Positions 1-17,100 of a DNA stretch of 34,489 bases are shown piece by piece (position 1 is the stretch's first letter; every line of letters begins with the position of its first letter). This stretch comes from a virus (lineage: Duplodnaviria > Heunggongvirae > Uroviricota > Caudoviricetes): IMG/VR virus record IMGVR_UViG_2541047695_000003. The stretch is one strand, 5' to 3'. The position numbers and the translations under genes were made by a program. The notes under the pieces are model-generated. The model ran no database searches and was not told the DNA's origin. It saw only the letters and a program-made list of their open reading frames with translations.

Positions 1-100
1 AAATTAGATACTAAATATATACGTGAAGGATGTTGAGCTGGTCAACGTCTACGGGGGAGAACATCCCCCGCTAACCTTTTTCTTATTTGAGGATTTACCT

Positions 101-202
101 ATGGTTGAATTTTTGATTTATCTGGCTGTAGGATTAACTATCGTATATTCACTGGCACATATTGGCATTTCTACTTTGTGTAACGCTTTCAAGTATCATT
201 AA
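101..202 (+). CDS. Small hydrophobic peptide (33 aa, MVEFLIYLAVGLTIVYSLAHIGISTLCNAFKYH), hypothetical
   Basis: ATG at 101 preceded by GAGGA Shine-Dalgarno (91-95); uninterrupted to TAA at 200-202; predicted single TM helix. Below the 60-aa cutoff of the ORF track. Confidence 0.25.
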   Translation: MVEFLIYLAVGLTIVYSLAHIGISTLCNAFKYH

Positions 203-255
203 TTAAATCGATGAATTGAACTATAGATGATGGTCGTTTTCAAAGAGGATTATCT

Positions 256-429
256 ATGGATCTTTTTGTCTACTTTGCTACTCTGCTGTTTTTGACTATC
301 GTCGCTGGCATTAAATTGATTTTTATATCGCTGGTGGTATTTTTCAAATTTCTAATCGGTACGCCTTACGGCTGGGTATGTTTAATCCTGTTTATTCTTT
401 TTAGTTGCTGTAAATCAGACACTAAATAA
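256..429 (+). CDS. Small membrane protein (57 aa, two hydrophobic segments), hypothetical
   Basis: ATG at 256 preceded by AGAGGA SD; ORF runs to TAA 427-429; strongly hydrophobic product MDLFVYFATLLFLTIVAGIKLIFISLVVFF...; followed by two + strand terminators. Confidence 0.3.
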   Translation: MDLFVYFATLLFLTIVAGIKLIFISLVVFFKFLIGTPYGWVCLILFILFSCCKSDTK

Positions 430-588
430 TATTGTAATCTGCCTTTTCTCCTTATGTGGTTTTAACAGGGAATTTTCGAAAGAGAGTTCCCGATTAAAAG
501 CCATTAAAACACACTCCAGTACAGTGTTTTCATAGTCAGTGATCTATACAACACAAAAACATAACAAGTATAGATTGAGTATTAATCC

Positions 589-616
589 TCCCGCCCCGAA
601 GGGGGCGGTTATTTTT
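589..616 (+). terminator. Rho-independent terminator (hairpin CCGCCCC-GAAG-GGGGCGG plus T-run)
   Basis: 7-bp GC stem 591-597/602-608 followed by TTATTTTT. Confidence 0.55.
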
Positions 617-693
617 CTGGCTTTAAAGAATAATGTAGCATTATGTTCATTATAACCTCATCTTTGTTGTGCAAACCTAACCTAAACTTACTA

Positions 694-717
694 GGGACTC
701 TTCGGAGTCCCTTTTTT
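694..717 (+). terminator. Rho-independent terminator (GGGACTC-TTCG-GAGTCCC plus TTTTTT), possibly bidirectional
   Basis: Perfect 7-bp stem with UUCG loop and T6 on + strand; A-rich on the other side; overlaps the stop codon of the minus-strand gene 716-1660. Confidence 0.5.
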
Positions 718-1660
718 ATTGGCAGTAAGAAAAGTTAGTACCGTACATTTCATCATGAAGCATTGCAACATTGCGTTTCTGTTCTTCTTCCTCGTCTACC
801 GCATCACTAGAAAAATGAGATTTGCCCTTAAAAGAACGAAGCAATTGCAGTGCAGCCATCGGATCACGCATCACATCGATTTTCACTTCTACTTCATCAT
901 TTGCGGCCTCATCAGCCGCATTTTCAACTACTGCCACCGGAGCAACTTCTTTAGCTTTCAGTTCTTCAATCTCAGCTTTCTGTGCTTCGATGATCTGGTC
1001 TTTTTCTTTCAGTGCAGCTTTCAGTTCTGCGATCTGTGCTTCCAGTGCAGAGAAACGATCTTCAACAGCAACCGGAGAAACAGCATTAACCTGTGCTTCC
1101 AGTTCTACGAAAGCGTCGCAAGATTCAATACGTGCTTTTTCTTCACCTTCATATGCAACCAGTTCTACTACTTCTTTCTCAGTAGCGTGGCTGTTAAAGA
1201 ATACAGCAAAGTAAGGATTGCCGGATTTGGTGAAGTTCAGTTTAGCTTTTCCGGTAACTTCTTTACGACGACCAAAGGTAATGTTGCAATCAGCGGTATC
1301 CTGAAAATCCATGTTAGGAGCGGAAACGATAGCAGTATCACCAGCAATCACTAGGTGGAACAGTTCAGAAGAGTTCTTAACGGTGAAAGTAACGATGTGG
1401 TCTACTGCAACGTCTTTAGCAGGTTTAACGCGGTCGATTGCTTTACGAATGCCGTTAGGCAGTTTACCGTCAACACCAAAGCCAGCCGCGATCAGTGCTT
1501 CACGATGTGCTTTAAAGCCAGCGAAAGCGGATTTCTGCTGCGCAAAGGAAACATGAGCAACAACTTTCGGCTGAATCTTCTTGTTTGCTTCGGTGCCAAA
1601 TTTGATAACTGCTTTAGCGTTGGTTACTTCGTTAGTGAAAAAGTTAGCGGAAAATAACAT
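716..1660 (-). CDS. Hypothetical early protein (314 aa): globular N-terminal region, central coiled-coil, acidic C-terminal tail
   Basis: Long ORF with diverse composition; AGGAG SD 9 nt upstream of ATG (1660); the + strand overlapping ORFs are low-complexity Phe/Ser-rich artefacts. Function not recognised. Confidence 0.75.
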   Translation of the reverse strand: MLFSANFFTNEVTNAKAVIKFGTEANKKIQPKVVAHVSFAQQKSAFAGFKAHREALIAAGFGVDGKLPNGIRKAIDRVKPAKDVAVDHIVTFTVKNSSELFHLVIAGDTAIVSAPNMDFQDTADCNITFGRRKEVTGKAKLNFTKSGNPYFAVFFNSHATEKEVVELVAYEGEEKARIESCDAFVELEAQVNAVSPVAVEDRFSALEAQIAELKAALKEKDQIIEAQKAEIEELKAKEVAPVAVVENAADEAANDEVEVKIDVMRDPMAALQLLRSFKGKSHFSSDAVDEEEEQKRNVAMLHDEMYGTNFSYCQ

Positions 1661-1704
1661 TATAAATACTCCTGTGGAAAGTTAGTTTTAATTGTTCATT
1701 TCAA

Positions 1705-1742
1705 GCCTCCTTTGCTGCAACAAGGGAGGCTTTTTCTTTTTT
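1705..1742 (+). terminator. Hairpin plus T-run (GCCTCCTTTG...CAAGGGAGGC TTTTTCTTTTTT) between two minus-strand genes
   Basis: 10-bp stem (1 mismatch) followed by T-run on the + strand; on the minus-strand RNA the same hairpin lies in the intergenic leader of gene 716-1660 and contains an AGGAGG sequence. Confidence 0.4.
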
Positions 1743-1774
1743 AAAGCCATCATATAATTCTCAGTGAAAGTGGA

Positions 1775-1954
1775 TTAACAAACTTGAACGTTAATCTTTA
1801 CCTGAATTTCGTATTTCTTCATTAGCTTGTAGAATCCGCTTCTATCAATTCCTTCCTTCTTAAAGAAGTTTTCCCCGCCTCGCTCAGTGTCGCTGTAAAA
1901 GCGTTTAGCAATATCAACAATCATTTCACGAGTGAACTTAACAGGTCTAGCCAT
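1775..1954 (-). CDS. Small HTH DNA-binding protein (59 aa, MARPVKFTREMIVDIAKRFY...GIDRSGFYKLMKKYEI), paralog family A
   Basis: ATG at 1954 (minus) with GAGGA SD 8 nt upstream (the track ORF starts at an upstream TTG, 1969). Shares the RPxxF...DIA...GI...FYKxMKK motif with 5372-5599 and the C-terminus of 5634-6239. Confidence 0.6.
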   Translation of the reverse strand: MARPVKFTREMIVDIAKRFYSDTERGGENFFKKEGIDRSGFYKLMKKYEIQVKINVQVC

Positions 1955-2053
1955 AAGTAGATTCCTCAAATGTGGATTAATAAGGACAATAAAAAGAGCT
2001 TTTCGCCCTCGATACTTCTATTTATAAAAGTCATTTCAGAAAACCCTGCAAAA

Positions 2054-2075
2054 CCACTGTGTATCTGATCAGTGG
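2054..2075. repeat. Inverted-repeat site CCACTG-N10-CAGTGG (operator-like)
   Basis: Perfect 6-bp arms; a near-identical copy lies at 2139-2160; adjacent to a candidate leftward promoter (-35 TTGCAG 2050-2045). Confidence 0.4.
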
Positions 2076-2138
2076 GAGCACGAATTGCTAAAGAGAAGAT
2101 TAATTATTAATCAATTCGTACAATATTCAACCGAAAAA

Positions 2139-2177
2139 GCACTGTATATCTAACCAGTGCTGTATGAATTAGCAGTG
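2139..2177. repeat. Inverted-repeat site GCACTG-N10-CAGTGC followed by a third CAGTG half-site
   Basis: GCACTGTATATCTAACCAGTGC (2139-2160), then CAGTG again at 2173-2177; direct repeat of the 2054-2075 element (CACTGT-TATCT-A-CAGTG core). Confidence 0.4.
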
Positions 2178-2296
2178 AATCAGGAGATTTTCAGAAGTGA
2201 ACAATCATTTCACACATGTATTTATAACGTGGAAATTCTTGCTTATCATCTATATGGGGACTGTTTAGAAAATTTCAACCCCCACCAGTGAGAAAA

Positions 2297-2325
2297 AGTA
2301 TAAAATAATCCTTGACAGTTGTCAA
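2297..2325 (-). promoter_or_regulatory. Candidate sigma70-type promoter reading leftward (-35 TTGACA, 17-bp spacer, -10 TATACT), overlapping palindrome TTGACAGTTGTCAA
   Basis: Minus-strand TTGACA at 2325-2320 and TATACT at 2302-2297 with exact 17-nt spacing; the perfect 14-bp palindrome 2312-2325 could also be an operator. Confidence 0.4.
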
Positions 2326-2519
2326 TGCACTTGACCTAAGCGAGAAATGACTATCAAAATTTTTGTTTGAAAATGGTAGATCAGGATTATCAACCTTTAT
2401 AACCTATTATAGCGCGGAGACCTTTTGACAATTCTTTTTAAATCATTAACTTACGCCACTTTTTGGTGATTTTTTGATTAAATAATATACAAGAATTTTC
2501 TATCAAAATATTTGATGGG

Positions 2520-2770
2520 AATTGCCCCTGAAATTCTGAATTTTTGCCCCCGAATAAAATCCCCAAGATTCTACTATCCCATTTTTGCCCCTGAAACCTA
2601 CTATTTTTGCCCCTGAAATTCTGGGAAACAGTGATTTTGCCCCTCATTTTTGCCCCTGAAATGCCAATAATTGCCCCTGAAAATCTAATTTTTGCCCCTC
2701 ATTTTTGCCCCTGAAAAGGATTGGTGAGAAAAACCCTTTATAAAACATTAACTTAGCGAGGGGCAAAAGC
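2520..2770. repeat. Iteron-like array: ~9 direct copies of (T)TTTTGCCCCTGAAA (core GCCCCTGAAA / GCCCCTCA) plus one inverted copy (GAGGGGCAAAA)
   Basis: Cores at 2524, 2555 (variant GCCCCCGAAT), 2587, 2609, 2639 (GCCCCTCA), 2652, 2673, 2694 (GCCCCTCA), 2707; inverted copy 2759-2769; irregular spacing of roughly 13-32 bp; no spacer regularity, no coding potential. Confidence 0.75.
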
Positions 2771-2859
2771 GGGGGATCGGGCGTGCATAGATATTATATA
2801 ACACATTCGCTACGCTCATGTGTAAAACTAAAAACAACAAATAACCAAAAAGATAATTA

Positions 2860-2878
2860 GGAGGGCGTAGCCCGACTG
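2860..2878. repeat. Direct repeat copy 1: GGAGGGCGTAGCCCGACTG (contains GGGC-N3-GCCC mini-hairpin)
   Basis: 16/19 identical to copy at 3291-3309; the two copies bracket ~430 bp of repeat-rich non-coding DNA. Confidence 0.5.
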
Positions 2879-3055
2879 CGCGAAGCGCTAACCAATTACT
2901 TCTAGTAACAACTAATTTAAACTAGATGATACTAGATGGTCTTAGAAGGAATTAACTAGTTTGCTCGCTCGCTTCGCTCACTCTCAAACGTCTGCGACGC
3001 CACTGCGTGGCATCGAGAATCACTTCTGAAAGGATTTTCTCGAAAGGGATTTAAT

Positions 3056-3142
3056 ACTAGTTACTAACTGATTCTAGAAAGATAGTAATAATCACTTTGA
3101 AGATAATAGTAGTTAACTGGTTACTAGATGATTCTAGATCAC
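3056..3142. repeat. Tandem imperfect repeats of a TTACTA(A/G)(C/A)TGATTCTAGA-containing unit (about 60-bp period); related ACTAGATGATACTAGATGG at 2921-2940
   Basis: TTACTAACTGATTCTAGAAA (3061-3080) vs TTACTAGATGATTCTAGATC (3121-3140), 17/20 identical; each followed by CACTTT(G/A)A. Confidence 0.45.
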
Positions 3143-3167
3143 TTTAATGATCATGAAAGGTATTGGT

Positions 3168-3196
3168 ATCCCTTCGGGATTGCAACCTTCGGTTGC
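3168..3196 (+). other. Two adjacent GC-stem hairpins with TTC(G) loops (ATCCC-TTC-GGGAT; GCAACC-TTC-GGTTGC), no T-run
   Basis: Back-to-back stable stem-loops seen directly in the sequence; not followed by a U-run, so not a canonical terminator. Confidence 0.3.
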
Positions 3197-3290
3197 TAAA
3201 TTGCTTCCTGATTATTATTTCTCCAAAAGAAAGATTATTATATTCTAAAGATACTTCTTCGTTTTGATCATAATTTAATCAAATCATGAA

Positions 3291-3309
3291 GGAGGGCTTT
3301 GCCCGACTG
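3291..3309. repeat. Direct repeat copy 2: GGAGGGCTTTGCCCGACTG
   Basis: See copy 1 at 2860-2878. Confidence 0.5.
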
Positions 3310-3398
3310 AATACAATCACCTTTCATAATAACAAGAATTTTCTCTTTATAAATAATAGTGAACTTACTTGATTCACTTTCTTTTAGAGGATACCACT

Positions 3399-3848
3399 AT
3401 GATCAATACTAAAACTCCTTTCGTACTTCTGGGTCTGGACTCTGAAAACTATGGTAACTTCCATATGCTAGAAGTTTTCGCTCATCGTGGTTATAACATC
3501 ATTCGTCATTCCGAAGACTCCAACTACTCAACTGCTTTCTACGCTTTAAAACGAAATGGTCGTCCTACTGTGATCATCGACTGTTTTACTGATGAGGGTC
3601 GTCTTCAATACAACGATATTCCAGCAATTATTGTTCGTGATGATCTGCCGTTTCAAGTCCGTTCCGGTGACATTGACCTGGGTAGCTTCTTGACTCTTCG
3701 TGAACTGGATGAAGCAATGTTTAATTACGGTAAAGAAACCGCTCAGGAAGCCCCAGAACAAGATGAGGAAGACGAAGACTACGCACCAATCGCTTTCTCT
3801 TCTCACGGTGGCTTCTACGGTTACGACGAAGGCTTAGATATGCTGTAA
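3399..3848 (+). CDS. Hypothetical early protein (149 aa) with strongly acidic C-terminal tail
   Basis: ATG at 3399 (MINTKTPFVLLG...) with GAGGA SD; the track ORF starts 10 codons earlier without an RBS. C-terminus EAPEQDEEDEDYAPIAF... is acidic. Confidence 0.7.
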   Translation: MINTKTPFVLLGLDSENYGNFHMLEVFAHRGYNIIRHSEDSNYSTAFYALKRNGRPTVIIDCFTDEGRLQYNDIPAIIVRDDLPFQVRSGDIDLGSFLTLRELDEAMFNYGKETAQEAPEQDEEDEDYAPIAFSSHGGFYGYDEGLDML

Positions 3849-3883
3849 GTTAGGTCAACCCTTTGGCATCTTGTCAAGGGGTA

Positions 3884-3912
3884 TTGACAAAAATTTCTGA
3901 CTTTTTTATGAT
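3884..3912 (+). promoter_or_regulatory. Candidate sigma70 promoter (-35 TTGACA 3884-3889, 17-bp spacer, -10 TATGAT 3907-3912); -35 embedded in inverted repeat TTGTCAAGGGGTATTGACAA (3871-3890)
   Basis: Consensus -35 and near-consensus -10 with 17-nt spacing about 55 nt upstream of the 3969 start codon; a second TTGACA lies at 3921-3926. Confidence 0.5.
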
Positions 3913-3968
3913 TATCGAACTTGACAACTTTGAACCTATTTGACCTAGATTTGTAAAGAGGATGTAAC

Positions 3969-4301
3969 ATGAAAGAATTTACCATCACTAAATCCCTGTA
4001 TGACTGGACTGTTAAAATCTCCGGCAAAACCGTTTCTGTAACCCCTAGCCATGTAGAAAATGATTGGGGCGTATCCCGTGAAACTATCTCCCGTAGTATG
4101 CATGTTCCGTTTGATCTGATGACCTTAACTGGTATTCATGCAATGCTGGAAGTTCGCGAGCAATTCGAAGCTGGTAATCACAATGCAACTCCAGTTAGCA
4201 ATCACCTTCTTACTAATGAAGAACGTGAAATCATCGAAAACTGGCGTTATGAATATGCGATTCCTTATTATGAAGAAGACCAAGTAGAAATCGATTGGTG
4301 A
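3969..4301 (+). CDS. Hypothetical protein (110 aa)
   Basis: ATG with AGAGGA SD 7 nt upstream; promoter candidate immediately upstream; no recognisable motif. Confidence 0.75.
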   Translation: MKEFTITKSLYDWTVKISGKTVSVTPSHVENDWGVSRETISRSMHVPFDLMTLTGIHAMLEVREQFEAGNHNATPVSNHLLTNEEREIIENWRYEYAIPYYEEDQVEIDW

Positions 4302-4389
4302 TAAATTTCTATTATAAATAAAATTGTTCCGGTTGAGATGCCGGAACTAGGAGGATCAATCACTAAACCGTTTAAGGGGAATTAATACT

Positions 4390-5196
4390 ATGAATACTGT
4401 TACCGTTATGAATACTGCTAAAACTGCTTCCGTGTCTCTGGTTGTTGATAACACCAAACCGCTGACCATGTCTTCCCGTCAGATCGCTGAATTTACCGGA
4501 AAGAAACACTTTCACGTAAAACGCGACATTCGCGAAATGCTGATTACCTTAGAATTAGATGAATCCAAATTTGGATGCATCTTTTTTGACCAATATGGAC
4601 GCGAGCAAACAGAATATCACTTGAATGAAGAACTGACTCTGACTCTTGTCACTGGTTACAATATCCAGATGCGAAACGCGGTTATTCAGGAATGGAAGCG
4701 ACTGAAAGAAGAAAATGAAAAACTTCGCTCTACTCCGGTTAACCCGTATGCAGACTTTGAAGAAACAGACTGGATCGAACTGGCATTAAAGAAAACTCGC
4801 GAAAATAAAAAGCTGATTGAACTTCATGTTCGCAAATCCGTAGATAGCCATTCAATGACGCGTCTGTTAGGCGCTAAAAAGGGCGCTACGAAGGTTAAAG
4901 AAGCACTGACGGCCTTACGTACTGCTGGATACATCGAGCGCGTCTATGATGAAAATAACAAGCCGTGTGGGTATGTTGCTAATGATTCTTCTCTCTCTTT
5001 CTGCCGCATGAATGCTCACTACCAACTTGAGTTTACTGTTGATGTGCTTCCGGTGCTGGTTGAATTGGGTGTTTTGGAAGAAGAACAAAAAGCAACTCTG
5101 AATCTTCCTAAGCCGAACAACACTATTCTGATTCAAAATAAAGCGGCTGAACGTCTCCGTCAGAATGTTGGATCACTGGAAGTCTTCGGACTGTAA
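4390..5196 (+). CDS. Rha-family phage regulatory protein / antirepressor-like (268 aa)
   Basis: N-terminal SRQIAEFTGKKHFHVKRDIREML matches the conserved Rha-domain signature (HxxVxRDI) as I recall it; AAGGGG SD; followed by a strong terminator. Confidence 0.75.
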   Translation: MNTVTVMNTAKTASVSLVVDNTKPLTMSSRQIAEFTGKKHFHVKRDIREMLITLELDESKFGCIFFDQYGREQTEYHLNEELTLTLVTGYNIQMRNAVIQEWKRLKEENEKLRSTPVNPYADFEETDWIELALKKTRENKKLIELHVRKSVDSHSMTRLLGAKKGATKVKEALTALRTAGYIERVYDENNKPCGYVANDSSLSFCRMNAHYQLEFTVDVLPVLVELGVLEEEQKATLNLPKPNNTILIQNKAAERLRQNVGSLEVFGL

Positions 5197-5202
5197 TTAA
5201 TC

Positions 5203-5236
5203 GCCCGGCGCATAATTGCGCTGGGCTTTTTGTTTT
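5203..5236 (+). terminator. Rho-independent terminator (GCCCGGCGC-ATAATT-GCGCTGGGC plus TTTTTGTTTTT)
   Basis: 9-bp stem with one G-U pair followed by a T-run directly after the 4390-5196 stop. Confidence 0.7.
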
Positions 5237-5330
5237 TATAGATAACAGCATTTTTGCTGGCATCTATAGATCAGTCCAGATTTGGACTCAACTTAGAAAT
5301 GAGCGCAGTTTTGCGCCGATTGTTTTACAT

Positions 5331-5356
5331 ACAAAAAAGCCACTCCGAAGAGTGGC
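5331..5356 (-). terminator. Rho-independent terminator for the leftward operon (GCCACTC-TTCG-GAGTGGC plus U-run on minus strand)
   Basis: Perfect 7-bp stem 5339-5345/5350-5356; A6 on + strand (5333-5338) gives a U-run after the hairpin on the minus transcript; 15 nt beyond the stop of 5372-5599. Confidence 0.6.
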
Positions 5357-5371
5357 AAAGAGAATCAAAAC

Positions 5372-5599
5372 TCAAAAACCTGTTGCTTCTACGATCTGAC
5401 CATCACCGATCTGAACATAGAATTTAATGTCTAACTTCTTCATATTCTTATAGAATTGGGCAATTGAAATCCCATGTTCACTAAGAATCTGTTCTTTCGC
5501 TTCCTTACCACGATCCGCTGTATAATAAGCGTAGGCAATATCAGCCATTTGTTCAGCGTTAAAACGGGCAGGACGACCGCGAGTAGCTTTAGTAGTCAT
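5372..5599 (-). CDS. Small HTH DNA-binding protein (75 aa, MTTKATRGRPARFNAEQMADIAYAY...GISIAQFYKNMKKL), paralog family A; resembles terminase-small-subunit / AlpA-type N-terminal HTH
   Basis: Second in-frame ATG (5599) has GGAGAA SD at 6-nt spacing; the first ATG (5605) abuts the SD. GRP-x-RF...DIA...GIS..FYK.MKK motif shared with 1775-1954. Confidence 0.6.
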   Translation of the reverse strand: MTTKATRGRPARFNAEQMADIAYAYYTADRGKEAKEQILSEHGISIAQFYKNMKKLDIKFYVQIGDGQIVEATGF

Positions 5600-5633
5600 A
5601 GTCATTTCTCCAAATTAAAGTGAATGTTCACTT

Positions 5634-6239
5634 TTATTTAGAGGACTTACATTTTATCGGAAAAAGTTCTCCATCGTCAATACTCATAAAGAACTCTGCC
5701 TTAATCCCGTACTTCTTCAACCGTGAATAGTATGTACCCCGACTTATATCAACCTTGCGCAGCACTTCAAAGAACCCTTTAGGATCGTTGTAATAGTGGC
5801 TGTATCGCACGTTAGCGAGTTCTACAAACAATTCCCTTGTATCACCATAGCCTTTCTTGAAAGCCTCGTTACGATAGCGTGTAATAGCGTGATTCAATCT
5901 CTTCTGTTTCAACACTTCTCGGATCGGCTTCCACTGCAACCTATAGATAGGACCGTCATCAATGCGATAATAACGCTTGATATCAAAATCAAACCAATCT
6001 CGGACTCGCTGAAACTCTGTCTGTGAGGTGCGATACTTCTTAAAGAAGTTATGAATATCGGTATACCCATGATCACGATACAACTCGATTAAAATCTGTT
6101 TAGCTTCCTCACGACTAAAGCCAGATGTTGTGTAATCAGTCTTCTTGTGATGGTGCTTAACTGGCAAACGATATTCATGATCGGTACAACAAGAAAAGGC
6201 TAATTCTACTTCATCTCTTTGTTGCTGATTAATTAGCAT
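5634..6239 (-). CDS. Hypothetical protein (201 aa) with C-terminal HTH-like segment ([16 protein letters not shown]) related to paralog family A
   Basis: AGGGGG SD 5 nt upstream of ATG 6239; divergent from the terminase gene; function unknown. Confidence 0.7.
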
Positions 6240-6326
6240 ACAACCCCCTTAAATATTAATACCCGTATTTATCAAAATATCAACAATTTAATAAATACCT
6301 TCATATTTCGTAATGAGGGTAATTAC

Positions 6327-8234
6327 ATGAAACTAATTTCTAATAAGGCCAAATTAAAAAAGATTCTCAGAAATGCAGCCAAATATATTACGCCACCGCC
6401 TAAACTCCTTCCATCGGAATGGTGCGAAGCTAATATGGTGCTGGTAGATGGTCCTCAAGCTGGGGATAAAGTTAAATTGCTGTCATTCCAGAAAGGTATG
6501 ATTGATGCTCCTTTCCTTGAGAACAAGAAAAAGTATGTTCTGATGACCAGTGCGCAGATCGGAAAGACTACCATCCTGAACGGCATCCTGTTTAACCAGA
6601 TGGCTAACGATCCATGCAATATGATTATCGGACAATCAACCGCTAAAGAAATGTCTCAATATCTCGCTGGTAAGATCCGACCGTCTATCGAAGCATGTGA
6701 TGCATTAAAAGACGTGGTTACAGACAAGAATGATCGCAATGCGGTTAACAACAATAACCAACTCCAGCTAAAAACGAATCACTTCCTGTACATGGTATCG
6801 CTTACCAGTCCATCAACCCTGCGCGGTAAGACTGCAAAGGTCGGACTACTAGACGAAATCGATGCTGCTACAGCCTCAGAAGAAGGTGATCCGGTGGCAC
6901 TGGCTGCTAACCGTTTAACTACCTTTGGCGATGAAGGCCGATTAGTCGTATCCAGTACCCCGACCAGTAAGCTCGGAAGCATTAACCAGCAATGGTTATC
7001 AAGCGATATGCGTATGTTTTTTGTTCCGTGTCCTCATTGCGGGGAACACCAGGTGATCGAGTGGGAAAACGTTCAATTTGAATGGCGTAACATCGATGGT
7101 AAGAACTTACCCGATCCTGATACCGCTCGTTATATTTGCCCCCACTGTAAGAACGCATGGACAGAAGGGGAACGAATCAGGGCAGTAGCGCAAGGCGAGT
7201 GGAGAGCAACCCGTGAAAGTGAAGTAGCAGGATTCTGGATTAGCCGTCTGTATTCACCTTTCAGCACGATCCGCGCTTGTGTGGTTGATTTTAGTCATGC
7301 GTGGCAATCCTTTGATTTACAATCATTTTATAACACCGTGTTAGGCAAGGTATACGATGATCAGGACACGGCAGTAGAAGCAAATGAACTGGAACAACTC
7401 AAAACAGATGTTTCTATCGAGAATATCCCTGATGACGTGATTTTCTTGTGCTCAGGAATTGACCAGCAATTGGATCGCGCAGAATCTACCATCTTAGGTG
7501 TAGCGAAAGATAAGGTTTACATTCTGGATCACCGTAGCTTTTACGATCATAACTGTGAACGATACGAATCACCTGTATGGGATCGTCTGGTTAACTTCAA
7601 GAAAACCAAATTCTATAACGTTAATGGTGAACGTGTGCCAATGCTCGCCAGCTTCCTCGATACATCAAACGGTCGATTCACTCAAGCCGGATACCGTATT
7701 TGTGGTAAGTGGAAGAACCTACACGCTATTAAAGGTAGTTCATCTGGTAATGCTCCAGTGATTCCGGTTAAACCTACCCGCACAGGTGGTCATGAATTGC
7801 TTATGCTGGGCGTTAACGTTGGTAAATCCGCTGTTCGTGAAATGCTGGTTAGAAACCTGAAAGATAATCCTCATATTGGCTTAGAAATATCAGAAACCGT
7901 TCCTGATGATTATCTCGATCAGCTTTTGAGTGAATCCATCAAGCGTACTACTACTGGTGTTCGTTGGGTGAAAAATCCAGGTAGTACCCGAAACGAGGCT
8001 CTCGACTGTCTGGTTTATAGCTATGCTGCTTCTCGCTACGTCCTTTCAAAAATGTCATGGGATAAACTCATTGCAATGAAAGACAGCTTAAACAGCGTTA
8101 AAGAAGAACCCGTAAAAGCTCCTGAATCGCAATCTGACGAGCAAATCGAAGAAACTAAGCCAATCACACGACCGCAACGTCAAAACATCGCCAGACGCCC
8201 AAATAGAGGCCGTAGCTGGGTAACATCGTTCTAA
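6327..8234 (+). CDS. Terminase large subunit, lambda gpA family (635 aa)
   Basis: By recall of lambda gpA: matching N-terminal EW-x-ANxxL...FQ segment, Walker-A-like SAQIGKT, CPHCGE...YICPHC zinc-ribbon-like pair, and C-terminal RNEALDC(L/F)VY motif; GAGGG SD; first gene of the long rightward structural operon. Confidence 0.9.
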
Positions 8235-8240
8235 TAACTC

Positions 8241-8262
8241 GCCGTCCTTCGGGGCGGCTTAC
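8241..8262 (+). terminator. Hairpin GCCGTCC-TTCG-GGGCGGC after terminase gene (weak or attenuating terminator)
   Basis: 7-bp stem with UUCG loop; downstream only moderately T-rich, so termination is probably partial. Confidence 0.3.
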
Positions 8263-8306
8263 TCCTAAATATTGTTAATCCAATAACAATTAAATAAGGG
8301 GTAATT

Positions 8307-8804
8307 ATGAGTTTAGAACTAATTCCCTTAGTAATTCGTAAAGGCGAAAAAATCACGCTGGCGAATGAAGAGGGTGTAACAATTCAGGTAGGAAATAATA
8401 ATAAAGGTATCATTTATCAGGTTGATGATACTCCGGCTAATCACGAGATTAAAACCTTAGATTTTGCCGAAGGTAAATATACCATCGTAATAACTTTGGA
8501 AGAAGAACTGATATCAATGCAGGAATTAACTGTTTTACCAGTATTCGCCAAACAATCCAAAAAAGAATATCTGCGGGAAACTATCGCCTTAATCGAGCAA
8601 GTTATTTTCGCCCGTTTATCTGGGGACGAAGCCGCATTATCAGCAATGACAGTGAAAGGGAATACTTTCGCCTATGAGTCATTGGCTGTTCTCCAGACTC
8701 TAAAAGTCGATTATGAACGTCAACTGTCTAAATTAATTCAAGCCGAACGACGTAAACAGGGAATTAGCCCGATTAAAAATATCAAATTACGTCTTACGCG
8801 ATAA
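8307..8804 (+). CDS. Hypothetical protein (165 aa) between terminase and portal
   Basis: AAGGGG SD; position corresponds to small head-completion or joining genes in lambdoid head modules, but no motif recognised. Confidence 0.65.
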   Translation: MSLELIPLVIRKGEKITLANEEGVTIQVGNNNKGIIYQVDDTPANHEIKTLDFAEGKYTIVITLEEELISMQELTVLPVFAKQSKKEYLRETIALIEQVIFARLSGDEAALSAMTVKGNTFAYESLAVLQTLKVDYERQLSKLIQAERRKQGISPIKNIKLRLTR

Positions 8805-8814
8805 GGGGTAAATC

Positions 8815-10326
8815 ATGTTTAATCTTTTTCGACGCAAAAAGGCGGTAGAAACTCCAGTTAAAACTAATCACCGCCAGCAACAACCAAAAATTTTCATCGA
8901 TAAGCAAGTAGAAAAATTCCAGAAATCTCTGGCGACTCGTAGTTTAGGACTGGTTGGTGATCGTATTGATGGATCACTTCAACAAGACACCATTACAGGA
9001 ACCTTCAATAAGGCTCTCAAATCGAATGGTAAGCGCCTTTATGATCAGGGTCGTACTCTGGCCTTAAACACTTCCGTAGGCAGTCGCTACACGCAATACA
9101 TCACCGATATGGTGGTAGGTACTGGCCTAGATCCGAAGCCGTCAGTTGTTAAACCAAATGGAAAACTTGATAGCGCACTGAATAAGCAGATCGAGAATGC
9201 TTTCTGGAAGTGGGCGCAGAATGCTAAACGCTTCTCTCGCAATGGTCGTTTTAACTTCCGTGAATTGCTGGTAATGGCTGAACGTGAGCGCGTTATGGGT
9301 GGTGAGTGTTTCATCGTTTTAACTAAAGAAAACAATGAGTTAAATGTTTCTATCCTGTCTGCTGATAAATGCGACTGGTCGCTAAACCGTGAAATAAGCA
9401 AAGAGCGTGCGATATATCAAGGTGTGGAGTATGACGTAGAGACGATGAAGCCCGTAGCATACTGGTTTCGTAAAATCAACCTACTGACTCAGACCTACAC
9501 TGGTGATAACTATCGCGTCGATGCTTCGCAAGTATGCCATTATTATCAACCACTTGCGGCTGAATCCCTGCGTGGTGTGACTGACTTCCTGCCAGTGATT
9601 AAGGATATCGCACATCAAGACGCATTCCGCGAAACTGCGATCGTCCAGAAACGTATTGCGGCTAGTTCTATGGGCTTTATCGAACGTCCGAAAGATTCTG
9701 GTGACGATTTTGATACTGGTGAAGAGGATGAACAATATCAAGCGCCGGAAGTAGTACAGGATTTTGCACCTGGTACTATTCAGGAATTACCGGAAGGGGC
9801 AACGATCAAGAGCATCCAGGCGACGCAAAGCGGTGATGATTTCAAATCCTTTAACGATGCGATGTATGGTAGCGTCGCGATGGGCTTAGGCGTGTTTAAA
9901 CAGGGCTTGACTGGTGACACTAGCCAAATAAATTACAGCGCCAGTAGATTCGGTGATTTAATGCAACGACACCGCGTTAAAGCACTGCAAAACAAATTGA
10001 TTGAAACAGTGGTATTGCCAATTTTCGAAGCATATCTACGCCATTATTCCGCGCGTGGTATTGTTCCGATTCGTATTACTGCAATTCCGCATATTATCGA
10101 TAACACTACTATTATTCGTCCTCGTTTTGAATCCGTCGATCCATTTAAAGACGTAAGCGCCGAGATTGCTTTAATTGATAACGGACTTAAATCACGTACT
10201 GCCGTTATTCTTGAACGTGGTGATGATCCTGAAAAAGTATTCTCAGAGATTCAAGCCGAAAAGAGCGCACTAAATATTATCGTTAATGGCGAGGGTGAAG
10301 AAAAAAATTCCCCAGCCGATCCCTAA
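8815..10326 (+). CDS. Portal protein (503 aa), putative
   Basis: Size and position immediately downstream of terminase large subunit and upstream of protease/capsid; AAGGGG SD. Assignment is by synteny; not verified by homology. Confidence 0.7.
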   Translation: MFNLFRRKKAVETPVKTNHRQQQPKIFIDKQVEKFQKSLATRSLGLVGDRIDGSLQQDTITGTFNKALKSNGKRLYDQGRTLALNTSVGSRYTQYITDMVVGTGLDPKPSVVKPNGKLDSALNKQIENAFWKWAQNAKRFSRNGRFNFRELLVMAERERVMGGECFIVLTKENNELNVSILSADKCDWSLNREISKERAIYQGVEYDVETMKPVAYWFRKINLLTQTYTGDNYRVDASQVCHYYQPLAAESLRGVTDFLPVIKDIAHQDAFRETAIVQKRIAASSMGFIERPKDSGDDFDTGEEDEQYQAPEVVQDFAPGTIQELPEGATIKSIQATQSGDDFKSFNDAMYGSVAMGLGVFKQGLTGDTSQINYSASRFGDLMQRHRVKALQNKLIETVVLPIFEAYLRHYSARGIVPIRITAIPHIIDNTTIIRPRFESVDPFKDVSAEIALIDNGLKSRTAVILERGDDPEKVFSEIQAEKSALNIIVNGEGEEKNSPADP

Positions 10327-10371
10327 TAACCAACGGGGGCGCAATGTCCCCAATTAATTAAAGGTGATTAA

Positions 10372-12372
10372 ATGCTTAAATTTCGCCGCGATCTTAACGG
10401 TTACGGTGGAGTTATTAACGAAGGGCATAACGATCAATACGAATTTGAAATTGCTTTCTCCAGTGAACAGCCGTATCAGCGCCAATTCTGGGATGAGCAA
10501 AATCAAGAGATGGTGGTACTAGATGAAATTCTGGTACATACACCGGAAGCGGTTGATCTGTCTCGTCTGAATAATAACGCTCCGTTGCTGTTCAATCATA
10601 ATTTCGATAATCATTTAGGTGTAGTCTGCGACGCTCGAATCGATGCGGATAACGTAGGTCGTGCTCTGGTTAAATTCTCTAAGCATGGCACTTTGGCTAA
10701 TGATATTCGCAATAAAGTCATTGAAGGTACGATGGAAAAAATTTCTGTCGGCTATGACATTAAAGAATATCACATCGATTACGCCAAAGGGCAATTGATT
10801 GTTACTAAGTGGGCGCCCTATGAACTCTCATTTGTCACCGTTCCTGCTGACGATACGGTCGGTTTAAATCGCTCTCTAAATACTATCACAGTTAATTTGG
10901 AGGCTAAACGCGATATGACTAAAGAACAAATTGAAGAAATCAAAGAAGAACAAGAATCCGCTCAGGTTGAAGAAACTCCGGTAGAAGAAATTAAAGAATC
11001 GGAAGTTGAAGAAACTCAAGAGCGCCAAGTTGAAGAGAATAAAGAAGATGAAAATCTCGAAGACGGAAAAGACGCTGAACATCCTGAAAGTGTTGATGAT
11101 GATAGTTCAACTGTTCGGGAAGAAGAAATAAAAGAAGAACGTGAAGCTGCTCCGGTTGAAGAAGAAAAAATCGAAGAAGTGGCTGAACGTTCCGAAGAAG
11201 ACGAATTAGAAATTCGCGAAATTGCACGCGAACTAAATATTGATGACGAAGAATTGAAACGCGCATTGGCAATTAAAGACATGACGCCGGAAGCATTCCG
11301 CACTAAGGCACTAAATAATCTCGTCAATGCTCAACGTAATAACGAACAAATTAAGGACTCTAAAATGGAAAAAACTTTTGACCTGAACAACGTAATTCGC
11401 TCTCTGGTAGATGGTGCTGCTCTGGGTGCTAACGAAGCTGAATATTCCTCTATGGCTGCTGGTGCTGCGATGCAGCGTGGTCGTGCTGCTCGTGGTGGCT
11501 CTGTATTCGTTCCGGCTGCTGCTCTGCGTGCTGCTGCTGATGGTAACACCAAAACTACTCTGACCGCTGTAACTGACGAAAAACTGATGACTGAATCCTA
11601 CATCGAAATGCTGATGCCGGAATCTGTTCTGGGTCGTCTGGGTGTGACTGTTTACAGTGGCTTGAACTCCCCGACCGCTATTCCAAAAATGACCGCTTCC
11701 AGCGTTGACGCTTTCGGCTTCGTTGATGAAAACGGTGCTGCACCGGAAAGCAAAGCTGAATTTGCGAACGTGAAACTGTCTCCGAAAACTTTTGCTGGTG
11801 GCAACCCGATCAGCCGTCAGTCGCTGAAAACCGTTCCGGGCATCGCTACCCTGATCACTGATCACATTAACAAAGCTGTTCGTATCAAACTGGAACAACT
11901 GATTCTGTCTGATAAAGAAAATGCTCGTGGTCCGGCTGGTCTGGTTAAGCAACTGGTAGACGCTAGCCGCGTTACCAAGAAAGCTGCTTTCTCTTATAAA
12001 GACTTCCTGAAAGAAATTGCAGCACTGACCGACGCTGGCGTTCCTGCTCAGGCGATCAAGTTTGCAATGAGCGGTGCAACTGCTGCTGAACTGGAATCTA
12101 CCCTGAAAGATAACGGCGTTTCCGGTTATATCATCGAAAACGGCAAACTGGCTGGTTACGAAGTAGTTACTTCTGGCGTTATCCCGGCAGACCACATCGT
12201 TCTGGGTGACTTCTCCGGTATTACTATCGGTGAGTGGGGAGGTCTGGAACTCGACATGGATCTAACTACATATAGGGATCGTGGTGCGGTAGTGCCTCGT
12301 ATCTTTGTAGATTTGGACTACGTTGTAGCACAGCCGGAAGCCCTGAAAGTTCTTCACATCTCCGCTGAATGA
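10372..12372 (+). CDS. Fused prohead protease (HK97-type, S78-like) - acidic scaffold-like linker - major capsid protein (666 aa)
   Basis: N-terminal ~180 aa carry His (LFNHNFDNHLGVV) and Ser (EKISVGYDIKEY) motifs typical of HK97-family prohead proteases; residues ~190-330 are Glu-rich and coiled-coil-like; C-terminal ~330 aa have capsid-like composition (MEKTFDLNNVIRSL...AAGAAMQRGRAARGG...). Strong terminator follows. Confidence 0.85.
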   Translation: MLKFRRDLNGYGGVINEGHNDQYEFEIAFSSEQPYQRQFWDEQNQEMVVLDEILVHTPEAVDLSRLNNNAPLLFNHNFDNHLGVVCDARIDADNVGRALVKFSKHGTLANDIRNKVIEGTMEKISVGYDIKEYHIDYAKGQLIVTKWAPYELSFVTVPADDTVGLNRSLNTITVNLEAKRDMTKEQIEEIKEEQESAQVEETPVEEIKESEVEETQERQVEENKEDENLEDGKDAEHPESVDDDSSTVREEEIKEEREAAPVEEEKIEEVAERSEEDELEIREIARELNIDDEELKRALAIKDMTPEAFRTKALNNLVNAQRNNEQIKDSKMEKTFDLNNVIRSLVDGAALGANEAEYSSMAAGAAMQRGRAARGGSVFVPAAALRAAADGNTKTTLTAVTDEKLMTESYIEMLMPESVLGRLGVTVYSGLNSPTAIPKMTASSVDAFGFVDENGAAPESKAEFANVKLSPKTFAGGNPISRQSLKTVPGIATLITDHINKAVRIKLEQLILSDKENARGPAGLVKQLVDASRVTKKAAFSYKDFLKEIAALTDAGVPAQAIKFAMSGATAAELESTLKDNGVSGYIIENGKLAGYEVVTSGVIPADHIVLGDFSGITIGEWGGLELDMDLTTYRDRGAVVPRIFVDLDYVVAQPEALKVLHISAE

Positions 12373-12509
12373 ACTCCTGTAGAACCTTCTGAACCTTCCC
12401 CCGATTTGGGGGAAGAAAATCTGATTCCATCTCAGGAAGAAGAAGTTCAAGAGGTTACGGCGAAAGCCACAGTTAAAAAAGAACGTAAGACTAAAGCAAA
12501 ATAATAATT

Positions 12510-12537
12510 AGCCCTGCCTTAATGGTGGGGCTTTTTT
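12510..12537 (+). terminator. Rho-independent terminator after capsid gene
   Basis: GCCC...GGGGC hairpin followed by TTTTTTG at 12531-12537. Confidence 0.6.
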
Positions 12538-12567
12538 GTATGTAAATACTCCATAAAGGGGGTAACT

Positions 12568-12858
12568 ATGTTCAAATTATCAGAATCACAATTATCAAGA
12601 ATGTTTCGAAGTGCTCCTGTATTTTCGGTGGAAGGTGGTAAATCAATTCGTGCTTATCATGAAATTACCACTACCGACGAACAAGGGGTAATTACAGAAT
12701 CAGAATTTCTATTTTGTCGTGAGGGAGACTTAAATCAGGGTGATGTTGTCATTGTAGACGGTGAACGCTTCAAAGTTCAATACGTTAAGCGCAATGGTGA
12801 TAATACTTCTGATTGCTTTATTGCTCGTGCAGGGGGTACACATGCTCGCTACCGTTAA
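12568..12858 (+). CDS. Hypothetical head-tail connector / head completion candidate (96 aa)
   Basis: Small ORF immediately after the capsid gene and terminator; assignment by position only. Confidence 0.6.
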   Translation: MFKLSESQLSRMFRSAPVFSVEGGKSIRAYHEITTTDEQGVITESEFLFCREGDLNQGDVVIVDGERFKVQYVKRNGDNTSDCFIARAGGTHARYR

Positions 12859-13264
12859 TAATATGCCTAGACTGAAAATTAAACGCGCCTTGCAGGATAT
12901 TATCGAACAAGATTTAGGTCTGGCTTTAAACGTAGAACAAACTCAGCAAGGCTTTAGTGATGATGTGGTTTGTTGGATTACCGGAATGAATGAGACTTAC
13001 AATAGGGTCCGTGGTGGTAATGCAATGCAAGCTGAATGCGTTATCGAAATGCAGTTGTATTCTCAGAATCATGAAACCAAAATTCATGAGGGTATTTGCC
13101 AGATAATCCAGATTCAGCCTGATAATCCACGTTTTAAAGATTTGGGCTTCTCTATTTCAGATATCACTCCAGTAGCTTCTAATACCGATTATGACGATGA
13201 TTCTAGTGATGGGGGTATCGTTGGGACACTTAGCCTTAAATTTTCTTATCTAGCGCGTTTTTAA
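12842..13264 (+). CDS. Hypothetical head-tail joining candidate (141 aa)
   Basis: Start reassigned to ATG 12842 (AGGGGG SD at about 7 nt) rather than track start 12761; overlaps the previous gene by 17 nt in a different frame. Confidence 0.55.
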   Translation: MLATVNNMPRLKIKRALQDIIEQDLGLALNVEQTQQGFSDDVVCWITGMNETYNRVRGGNAMQAECVIEMQLYSQNHETKIHEGICQIIQIQPDNPRFKDLGFSISDITPVASNTDYDDDSSDGGIVGTLSLKFSYLARF

Positions 13265-13273
13265 GGGGTAATA

Positions 13274-14107
13274 ATGAATATTACACAAGATAACTTAGAC
13301 ATTTTCACGGGGTCACATGTTGAAGTCTCCGTGTCTACTATGGTGGATAACCAGCCGGACTTTTTCGATCCTGCATTTAGTCCTATCGAGAACATCGCAG
13401 CATTCCCGACGATAACCGAATCCACAGAGATCCAGACGTTAGAAGAGTATGATCAGGACGCTACGGGGAAACTTGCTGGTTATCGTAAACTTGAATCAAC
13501 TACGTTAGTAGTAAACCGTGTTCTGGATGACGAACATCAAGACATGTTGATGAAAGCGGTGAATGATAAAACTCCTTTACGCTTTCGTATGTTCTATGTT
13601 GTGAACTCTGGCTATAGTGCTGCTAACACAGGTTACTACGTCATTTTTGACGCTTATGTCTCGTCACATAAAACAAAATCCGGTGATAACAAAGTTACTA
13701 CAATCGAGTTTAAATTAGAACCTGATGGCGGGATTCTAGATCGCGGTATTGCTACCGAAGGCCGGATCTTACGTCAAGGTGATTTTGGTTTGGGCGCTGG
13801 TGTACATCCATTCACAGGTCCGATTGATAGCGAAGCATTAGCCGGAAACCGTTTCGTAACTTATCAGGGATCGAGCGTATCTAATCCATTTAGTGCTGAT
13901 ACTTCACTAATTCACGTTCAACCTAATGAAGATGGTGGATGGCAATTAACTTGCACCGCTTCCGGCGCACCACGTTTACGAGTTCGCACAGTCCAGAAAG
14001 ACGGTAATTCTGGATGGGTGAAAGTGTATTCCACAGAAGAAAAACCGACACCAGCCGAGATTGAAGCCGTTTCTATCCATGACCGGATCGACTTCGGGGA
14101 ATACTGA
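13274..14107 (+). CDS. Tail-tube-like protein, long paralog (277 aa) with C-terminal extension
   Basis: N-terminal ~160 aa align by eye with ORF 18705-19175 (DIF(T/S)G...I-x3-AAFP...H-x2-(L/M)-x-KA...DG); C-terminal part carries a KPTPAEI motif identical to one inside the tail fibre (14181-17705). Confidence 0.65.
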   Translation: MNITQDNLDIFTGSHVEVSVSTMVDNQPDFFDPAFSPIENIAAFPTITESTEIQTLEEYDQDATGKLAGYRKLESTTLVVNRVLDDEHQDMLMKAVNDKTPLRFRMFYVVNSGYSAANTGYYVIFDAYVSSHKTKSGDNKVTTIEFKLEPDGGILDRGIATEGRILRQGDFGLGAGVHPFTGPIDSEALAGNRFVTYQGSSVSNPFSADTSLIHVQPNEDGGWQLTCTASGAPRLRVRTVQKDGNSGWVKVYSTEEKPTPAEIEAVSIHDRIDFGEY

Positions 14108-14133
14108 TTGCTTCTCTAAATAAAACATGACGC

Positions 14134-14165
14134 GGGAGGTTAACGCCTCCCTTATTCCTGTTTTA
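14134..14165 (+). terminator. Hairpin GGGAGG-TTAACG-CCTCCC followed by T-rich tract
   Basis: 6-bp GC stem followed by TTATTCCTGTTTTAT; lies between the tube-like gene and the fibre gene. Confidence 0.4.
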
Positions 14166-14180
14166 TAGTGAGGTGATTCG

Positions 14181-17100
14181 ATGCAGTCGATCCAATTTAA
14201 ACGAACAAATGTTTCTGGCAAAAAACCAACGCCGGAACAATTACAGGTCGGTGAGGTAGCAATCAACCTTAAAGACCATGTTATTTTTACCAAAGACCGA
14301 GATCATGAAGTAGTTCAAATCTCTGTTTCTCCTGAAACTCACGCGGCACTAGAATCTAAAGTTGATGCTAATAAAAAAGAACTGGATAGCACAATTGCAG
14401 TAAATGACCGCAATATTCACGCTAAAGTAGATGAAATTAAACAAACTACTGATGCAACCATCGCAGCAAATCACGCAGAAATTAACAATAAAGTTGATGT
14501 AATTAAACGCGAAACCGACGCGACAATCGAGGCCAATAAAAATAAAGCTGCTTCCGATCTTGCTGGTGTTAAAGCTGAATTGTCGGATACCATCAACGCT
14601 AATAAAAATGCGGCTGCTGTAGCAACTCAGGAACTGGACACCCGCATCAATAAAAAAGTTGATGATATTAAATCCCGTACCGATGCAACCATCGCAAGCA
14701 ATGACAAAGCAATCAATGACAAAGTTGATTTGATTAAGGCAGAAACTGACCGCACTATCGCAGCAAATCACGCCTATGCGGAAAATCAGTTAACTGACAC
14801 CTACAATAACCTTACTGGTGTGATTGCAGCCAATAAGCAAGAGGCAGCGGATAACGTCGCAGCATTAACCCGTGATGTTGAAGCCAAAAATACAGCAATT
14901 CATAGCAAAGTTGACAATAACAAGTCTTACACTGATTCTGAATTGGCACGTTTAGAAAGCCGTATTGATGCAGCCGATGGATCTGCTGATGGCAAGTACA
15001 TCAAAAAACACGTAAACACTTATACTGATGGTTATTTGCTGTCTAAGACCGCAAACTATTTTGATGATCCAAATGCGCGTAATCTTGATTACTTTGGTGC
15101 ATTCCGCATGAATGACCTGGCGGGTCATATTGCAATGATCTTGCATGTTCCGCATCCATCTGGTGTTAATCATGCTCGTGGCTTCGAGTTCACTTATGGG
15201 TCTAATCCACATGCTACTGTAAGAACATACGGCTATGATGAATTGGGACATTTGGCATATTCTCACCGCATGTATCATGAAGGTGATAAACCTACTCCGG
15301 CTGAAATTGGCGCATATTCGAAAGCAGAAATTGACCGACTGTTCCAGAAGACGCTTAATTTTGGTATCGAGGGTGGTTGGTTTAAACTAGGCACTTTGAC
15401 AATGCCACAACAACACGGTCGCACGGCTAAGATCCGTTTGGTTGGTGGTAACGGTTATAACGTAGGACATAATGGACAAGCCAATATTATCGAATTGGTG
15501 ATTCGATGCGGCAACAATAGCCCGAAAGGTGTTGTATTCAATGCGTATTATACTATTTGGCATCATGAACAACATTTTTGCGCTATTCCAACCGATGGCG
15601 ACAATTACGATCTTTACGCTTACTACGGTGCACATACAGGATTTGTTTTAGCAGAATATCAAGTTTCTTCCGGTGGTGTTTCTTTAAACCTGTTGGATAC
15701 TCCTGAATATCTGGGTGGTGAAAAACCTGTTGCAGATGAAATTTTTGATGCTCTTAACATTTCATCGTTCAATAACTTTAGCAACCGTGGGACGTTAAAT
15801 TTTGCTGGCAATCATCAAGGCCAATATGATATTGAGCATTTAAACGAACAACCGACAAATGCTAAAAAGATGTTGCGTCGCTTCCGTAGTTGTGCACCAG
15901 CTACAATCTGGCATGAGACAGTTGATGATAACGCATATCGTCTTGCTACTGGATACGAAGATACAAATCAGGAATTATTGCTGTCAGCAACATCCGGGTT
16001 ACATGTCAAGAAATTAACATTGGATGGCGGTGTTACTGGAAATTCTGGTATTGATATTCGTCGAGGACCAAACGAATCAAGCCATTTTAATTTCATGGAT
16101 TATCGCACTGGACAAGATGTTCGTAATGGCTGGTTTGGCTTCGGTGATGGTCAGACCAAAGATTTTATTTGGTGGAACGATAACGGTCAAAACTCTATAA
16201 ACCTGATTGAAGATGGTGAATTGCATATTACTGGCGGTAAAGGCCAGAAAATTGTAATGAATAGCGAAGTTGCATTATCTGAAAATGCTCGTTTGGCTGT
16301 CAAAGGTGGTAACTATGGTTTAATCCTTCGTAATGATGGTTCTAGCTTCCATATTCTTACTACCGATTTAAAAGATTCCTTTGGGACGTGGAACACTCGT
16401 AGACCATTTAGTTATGATTTCGCCGAAGGTGGATTAGATCTAGGTGGCACAGCTACCGCACGCTGTTTACATCTGGGAATTGATGGTAGCACCCGCATCG
16501 AAGATAATATGGTGTTTAGATCAGGGTCTCGTCAGTCAATGGACTATATTGAATTAATCCATTGGGGTAACAGTAATACCGCTCGTAACAACGTTTTGAG
16601 TATGAAAGACTCGAAAGGATTCCTTGCTGAATTTGAACGCGTGGGGGGTACTAACGGCGTTAAAACCAGATTCTTTGGCGAAACATTCACTGACGGTACA
16701 TTATACCTAAATCAGATGAATAATAGCTCTGAACGATTCTCTATCAATAACTGGGGAAATTCAGAAGTTGGTCGCGCGGCAGTGATGGAAGTCGGTGATT
16801 CCAAAGGTTATCACTTCTATACTGAACGTAGGACAGATAACAGTTTGATGTTTGATGTTGCTGGCGCTTTTACTGTGCATGGACCTTCCGGGATTACTAT
16901 CAAAAACTCTGCTGGTGCTCGCCACGTCTGGTTTAGAGATGATAGCGATACGGAAAAGGCTGTTATCTGGGCTACAGATGAGGGTATTTTACATATTCGC
17001 AATAACCACGGTGGACAATTTACACATCACTTCCAGGGCGCGATGATTAAACTGGAAGGGCGTGTTCCTTATGCCGCAGATCAAGGACTTATCCGTGGTG

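Follow-up and report, generated by a model that had tools for sequence, protein, structure and literature searches.

The terminase of the prophage described here is very probably a lambda-type (gpNu1/gpA) cos terminase with its two genes split. Most of this prophage is contained in the 34,489-nucleotide stretch of DNA analyzed (IMG/VR record IMGVR_UViG_2541047695_000003; hereafter the window). The large-subunit gene, terL, is the first gene of the structural operon within the window. The gene that in all likelihood encodes the small subunit, terS, lies just outside the window on the same strand; its stop codon ends at the base immediately preceding window position 1, and 6,326 nt separate it from the start codon of terL downstream. 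The element is a temperate Escherichia coli prophage of 37-38 kb with a G+C content of ~41%, and in complete genomes it interrupts ycdX (host flanks in loci L024 and L025).

TerL matches the Pfam families GpA_ATPase (PF05876; E value 1.9e-56, residues 54-292) and GpA_nuclease (PF20454; E value 2.6e-44, residues 301-571), and both domains score far above the Pfam cut-offs, which marks TerL as a gpA-type large subunit. The protein also matches PHROG 15 (“terminase large subunit”; E value 6e-138), and lambda gpA aligns with it collinearly over residues 9-575 in BLASTP (22% identity, E value 1e-24). All sizeable open reading frames (ORFs) from position 6327 to ~31270 lie on the + strand. terL is followed in order by genes for a gpW-like protein, a lambda-family portal, a protease-capsid fusion, head-completion proteins, tail proteins, and an endolysin. 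The succession of terL, a gpW-type gene, and a lambda-family portal gene is the lambda-type gene order, and an earlier sequence-only reading, in which a gpA-type terL opens the late operon, is upheld on this point.

The terS gene was first noticed in the complete genome of strain UTME-12, where its RefSeq label is “hypothetical protein.” It is also present on an E. coli scaffold (KE699021.1, assembly GCA_000456305.1, locus L032) that is 100% identical to window positions 1-16239 and was recovered by looking up the o201 protein, the product of the gene next to terL. TerS matches PHROG 57 (“terminase small subunit”) with an E value of 1.5e-16, residues 1-168 aligning with positions 9-190 of the 199-position profile. 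Comparison with lambda gpNu1 by hhalign gives a probability of 85% (E value 5.8e-6) over 85 columns, which correspond to the winged helix-turn-helix (HTH) and the charged helix that follows. The AlphaFold model of TerS (predicted local distance difference test score 77.7) shows three long helices besides a small winged HTH, and its acidic tail is disordered; the fold matches the N-terminal domain of one solved small terminase. Some TerS homologs at 74-79% identity are already called “terminase small subunit” by NCBI or UniRef. All relatives with sequence extending far enough, including those in Proteus, have the gene at this place, and it lies within attL-attR of a single prophage that contains no other TerS candidate. 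Among the TerS proteins of the E. coli and Salmonella family, the first ~80 residues occur as several allelic types, whereas residues ~85-183, including the terminal EFDVS motif, are almost invariant, as is TerL. This pattern is consistent with a DNA-recognition domain that varies, joined to a conserved part that would bind TerL. On its 3' side, terS is followed by a hairpin (CGGGGGAGAACATCCCCCG) and a T-rich tail. In one IMG/VR provirus (L005, 1413-3581), terS is split by an insertion of ~1.6 kb.

The small subunit seemed to be missing partly because the window was cut exactly at the end of an unannotated terS. Several IMG/VR entries, like the window, begin exactly after this gene, which the provirus boundary calls trim off. 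Among the ORFs of the window itself, Pfam and PHROG profile searches find no match to a small-terminase family, and a tblastn search of the window with TerS returns only noise (E value 0.013). The sequence-only reading had listed a small subunit encoded elsewhere among its alternatives, and the Nu1-like, co-oriented gene that abuts the left window edge 6.3 kb upstream of terL speaks for that alternative. A canonical small-subunit gene elsewhere, beside a mapped cos or pac site, is what the sequence-only reading had named as counting against it; of these two, the gene has been found and the mapped cos has not.

The two genes directly upstream of terL, o201 and o77, do lie on the opposite strand, as had been noted from the sequence. 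No further gene lies between o201 and terL because the gap measures only 87 bp. The same layout (o77 and o201 leftward, terL rightward) occurs in 21 IMG/VR proviruses with TerL proteins 77-99% identical, and also in E. coli and Proteus assemblies with more divergent o201 homologs; in total, it is kept in over 25 related prophages from E. coli, Salmonella, and Proteus. Since the layout recurs across relatives, it is a conserved arrangement and not a product of chance.

A domain of ~60 residues, comprising three helices and then a beta-hairpin, is common to o77, both halves of o201, and a third protein, o64 (four copies); alignment and the AlphaFold model are concordant on it. o77 is 34% identical to o64 (BLASTP, E value 9e-10) and matches the C-terminal module of o201 with a probability of 96% (hhalign, E value 4.3e-9). 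In the AlphaFold2 model, o201 forms two separate three-helix-plus-hairpin modules with a disordered linker between them; no oligomerization core follows the DNA-binding domain in this model, and o77 is a single module only. Homologs of o201 (39 close ones) and of o77 (19) are confined to this prophage lineage, and all are annotated “hypothetical”; among 1.8 billion cluster representatives, o201 has 12 matches, nearly all of them fragments of the same family. Both o201 and o77 look like DNA-binding proteins, and one guess is that they are regulators of an early/late switch or a directionality factor for the serine integrase. o64 occurs as two allelic types that co-vary with the adjacent DNA (1970-2517), and the two behave as expected for a regulator-operator module.

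The sequence-only reading had considered one of the divergent HTH proteins as the small subunit. A form of this proposal, in which o201 or o77 would be the true small terminase, the member of a new family, with its binding site for packaging within or close to the o201/terL intergenic region, draws on several features: both genes adjoin terL, both products are HTH-like, the 87-bp region is highly conserved, and the conservation of o201 (88-97%) is about equal to that of TerL while neighboring genes vary more. The proposal is nonetheless extremely improbable. Neither protein resembles any TerS family in sequence, profile, or fold: terminase profiles, those of small-subunit families included, and solved small terminases give no match, and hhalign against the TerS family of this phage gives probabilities of 0.2% (o201) and 0.1% (o77). 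Besides the missing oligomerization core of o201, the allelic forms of o77 are only 58-72% identical beside a near-constant TerL, and what is probably a bona fide Nu1-like gene is present in the same element. That Nu1-like gene could in turn be a remnant or could encode an Rpp-type mimic of TerS, the real specificity factor being unknown or absent. Its separation from terL, its own terminator, and its interruption in one relative would suit such an origin, which is nevertheless judged very unlikely. The PHROG 57 match spans the full length of the protein, the C-terminal half is as invariant as TerL, and the gene is kept in all relatives and in Escherichia phage DCP80. In contrast to the RppC-TerS complex of E. 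coli phage-inducible islands (PDB 6HN7), moreover, terS resides here inside a complete prophage without another TerS, and its product matches a small-terminase PHROG from end to end.

The reading of a split Nu1/gpA-type cos terminase also has results that weigh against it. Four of the five TerS family members match Pfam Phage_Nu1 (best E value 1.1e-4), which speaks for the reading, but they do so below the gathering score that Pfam sets. Three chains of solved small terminases (6hn7_B, 1j9i_A, and 7lw0_A), all aligned at the N terminus, are likewise in its favor as part of 11 weak PDB profile matches to TerS, but the PDB sequence matches are individually insignificant (E values 0.1-0.6). The cos site was not located. 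Local alignment of the DNA upstream of terS with lambda cos scores 23, which is insignificant against shuffled sequences (mean 18.3, maximum 29), and a repeat search of this upstream region finds no convincing R-site-like repeats. Contig ends were scanned with conserved motifs in IMG/VR and metagenome contigs, and Logan contigs of ~35 kb were inspected; the ends fall at the ycdX att site or are arbitrary rather than lying at a cos, and they are uninformative about its position.

By analogy with lambda, the DNA just upstream of terS is the best candidate for cos, with about an even chance that the site lies there. The 250-300 bp in front of the gene are non-coding and 80-98% conserved among E. 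coli relatives; invariant cores of this region persist into distant relatives, and it includes an invariant GC-rich palindrome (GTCGC-TAC-GCGAC). A cos located instead between o201 and terL, as the sequence-only reading had also suggested, or elsewhere in the window (e.g., in the conserved block at 430-715), is rather unlikely. Both of these regions are strongly conserved non-coding DNA, and P2-like phages have their cos away from the gene for the small subunit; in lambda, however, Nu1-type subunits bind sites adjoining their own gene, and the DNA upstream of terS is itself conserved and carries the palindrome. The block at 430-715 folds as a structured RNA with terminators. The AT-rich 87 bp between o201 and terL must also hold two ribosome-binding sites and promoters. 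This region is 93-99% identical in 19 relatives, and the two most distant ones retain just the 46 nt nearest o201; it contains no match to the sigma-70 consensus on either strand and no recognizable cos features, and a regulated promoter region is a simpler reading of it than a packaging site.

With a split lambda-type terminase as the preferred reading, terS would stand by itself at the far left of the prophage as a unit bounded by a terminator, and its product would have a Nu1-like winged HTH at the N terminus, then long helices forming a coiled coil, and an acidic tail with EFDVS at its end. terL would head the structural operon, started from its own control region at the o201/terL junction, and o201 and o77 would belong to an early/regulatory block between terS and terL rather than to the terminase. 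If lambda is a guide, TerS would bind cosB-like sites in the conserved non-coding DNA in front of its own gene and would recruit TerL through its C-terminal tail; TerL would then nick a nearby cosN and package rightwards. A broader proposal is advanced only tentatively, as one that may well prove wrong: throughout the lineage (prophages of E. coli, Salmonella, and Proteus and the DCP80-like phage), terS and a probable cos would be permanently uncoupled from terL by a block of early, replication, and regulatory genes, TerS would be made from a transcription unit of its own and timed apart from the late operon, and o201 would be a new control factor for the late operon or for packaging.

Table 1. 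Features of the prophage discussed in the text. Positions refer to the window unless a locus is named.
Feature	Position	Strand	Remarks
terS, 183 aa	L032 16240-16791	- (equals window + strand)	putative small terminase subunit; stop codon ends at window position 0
3' flank of terS	1-70	+	terminator-like hairpin at ~52-70
Mixed-orientation early/regulatory block	71-6239	.	separates terS from terL
o314	716-1660		314-aa coiled-coil protein, in terS-terL block
o64	1775-1969	-	third HTH-like paralog; adjoins large non-coding region
Rha-family regulator	4390-5196		Pfam Rha, E value 8.7e-13
o77, 77 aa	5372-5605	-	single HTH-like domain copy; 75 aa if start is 5599, as in the sequence-only reading and the Prokaryotic Genome Annotation Pipeline (PGAP)
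o201, 201 aa	5634-6239	-	orphan; two tandem HTH-plus-beta-hairpin modules; not small terminase
o201/terL divergent intergenic region, 87 bp	6240-6326	.	AT-rich; presumed control region of both units
terL, 635 aa	6327-8234	+	gpA-type large terminase (ATPase and nuclease); first gene of structural/late operon
gpW-like head-tail joining protein	8307-8804	+	PHROG 5774 “head-tail joining,” E value 1.1e-7, residues 48-160
Lambda-family portal protein	8815-10326	+	Pfam Phage_portal_2, E value 1.1e-62
Protease-capsid fusion, 666 aa	10372-12372	+	major capsid protein fused to S78 prohead protease domain
332-aa ORF, end of late operon	30272-31270	+	PHROG 681 “endonuclease,” E value 4.2e-20
Large serine recombinase, 564 aa	31344-33038	-	Pfam Resolvase, Recombinase, and Zn_ribbon_recom; right end of element

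The 6.3-kb gap between terS and terL is mosaic among relatives and contains at least nine ORFs of mixed orientation. Its contents are two small membrane-like ORFs, o314, o64, a 1.4-kb non-coding region, o159, o110, Rha, o77, and o201; Rha is the only gene to the left of position 6327 that matches a known family. The intergenic block at 430-715 (286 bp) lies between convergent genes and is 88-97% identical across relatives. Within it, the + strand of 430-625 is predicted to form three hairpins and an intrinsic terminator (minimum free energy -57.5 kcal/mol, z = -4.9, reached by 0 of 200 shuffles); this segment has no match in an Rfam search and is a candidate phage small RNA.

The 1.4-kb non-coding region contains seven direct copies of TTGCCCCTGAAA, together with variants and one inverted copy, within ~250 bp (2518-2775), a copy number reached by none of 100 shuffles. 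Across 17 relatives, the repeat block is present in all seven that have o314 and absent from all ten that lack it; the o64 module between o314 and the repeats recombines independently. This distribution suggests that o314 and the repeats form an initiator-plus-iteron or similar protein-site pair. A ten-copy TTTTTGCCCCTGAAA array (2520-2775) was also considered as a set of TerS binding sites (cosB or pac) and rejected: the array follows the distribution of o314 rather than that of the TerS alleles, and the repeat block is therefore unlikely to be a terminase binding site.

Several features of the late operon are distinct from the question of packaging. The gpW-like protein has an additional N-terminal domain of ~80 residues, of unknown function. 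In strain UTME-12, an IS1 element lies in or beside the portal gene (L024, 24829-25526). The two most divergent relatives carry, in the intergenic region between Rha and o77 (L017, 8911-8941; L019, 8952-8982), a 94% identical copy of a 32-nt stretch of the conserved non-coding DNA that lies 3' of the capsid gene (12510-12541). The major-tail-protein PHROG (158) is matched by two of the + strand ORFs at 13274-14107, 14181-17705, and 18705-19175, and these two flank a T4 gp37-like tail-fiber gene of 1174 aa. The fiber gene is placed between head-completion and tail-tube genes, an odd position for a gene of this kind. In place of the 332-aa ORF at the end of the operon, UTME-12 has a GIY-YIG nuclease, a DEAD-box helicase, and a 185-aa PHROG 681 protein; because the contents differ, this is regarded as a variable cargo region.

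The large serine recombinase at the right end integrated the prophage inside ycdX. Across the whole 37-38 kb element, no CI-like repressor, no excisionase or recombination directionality factor, and no replication protein is recognizable. Relatives came from a scan of IMG/VR and a search of E. coli genomes; a scan of a genome collection with exact TerL peptide patterns, which were probably too strict, gave no confirmed relatives. Megablast of the region against deposited phages found no match, which leaves the prophage without a sequenced phage relative at the DNA level. Nothing specific was found in the literature on the ycdX prophage or on split Nu1/gpA genes.

For annotation, a terS labeled “hypothetical” in RefSeq and trimmed by boundary calls makes such elements seem to be without a small subunit; predictions of packaging mode, transduction potential, or satellite-helper relations from trimmed entries would be misleading. 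A Nu1/gpA pair 6.3 kb apart would also indicate that lambda-type systems can do without coupling the two subunits at translation or transcription, and such a pair lends itself to the study of how the ratio and timing of subunits are controlled when their genes are in separate units.

In lambda the gene order is cos-Nu1-A-W-B, and several elements of this plan are shared by the prophage: a gpA-type TerL with both Pfam domains, terL ahead of gpW-like and lambda-family portal genes, and terS and terL on the same strand. TerS, too, is probably Nu1-like, its N-terminal winged HTH leading into a coiled coil. In contrast to lambda, in which Nu1 (191-736) and A (711-2636) overlap, no small-subunit gene is found directly upstream of or overlapping terL; 6,326 nt and early genes of mixed orientation intervene, and terS has a terminator of its own. 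The proteins are also distant, with TerL at 22% identity and TerS detectable by profile methods only, and no similarity to lambda cos was found.

Escherichia phage DCP80 (PQ671644.1) is the closest and only deposited phage record with a related TerL (43% identity), and its gpW-like and portal proteins are each 36% identical to those of the prophage. DCP80 has a true TerS homolog (hhalign probability 98.6%, E value 6.5e-16) that is likewise encoded far from terL. In the linear record, its terS comes after the endolysin gene and is 22 kb away from terL on the downstream side; on a circular map the order is as here, namely lysis, terS, other genes, and terL. DCP80 differs in having no homologs of o201 or o77. 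The split is a trait of the lineage and not an accident of one genome. The DCP80 record (L001/L037) is 141 kb long and classified as a T4-like Gaprivervirus; its first ~26 kb are siphovirus-like (genes for a gpA terminase, a lambda-type portal, tail proteins, an endolysin, and a Nu1-like TerS), and it continues with T4-type genes (motA, ndd, rIIA), and may be a chimeric assembly.

The phages P2 and 186 offer a parallel in layout: their terminase genes M (small) and P (large) are in divergent operons. As in the prophage, the two genes are non-adjacent; as is probable there too, they are not co-transcribed and have separate promoters. The P2 subunits belong to other protein families, however, and their genes lie ~3 kb apart on opposite strands with only head genes between them, whereas those of the prophage are co-oriented and separated by a whole early/regulatory block. 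Because non-adjacent terminase genes are known from such phages as P2, the split is unusual for the lambda-type family but not new in kind; it is a modest point that calls for no new mechanism, a known type of enzyme in an unusual gene layout.

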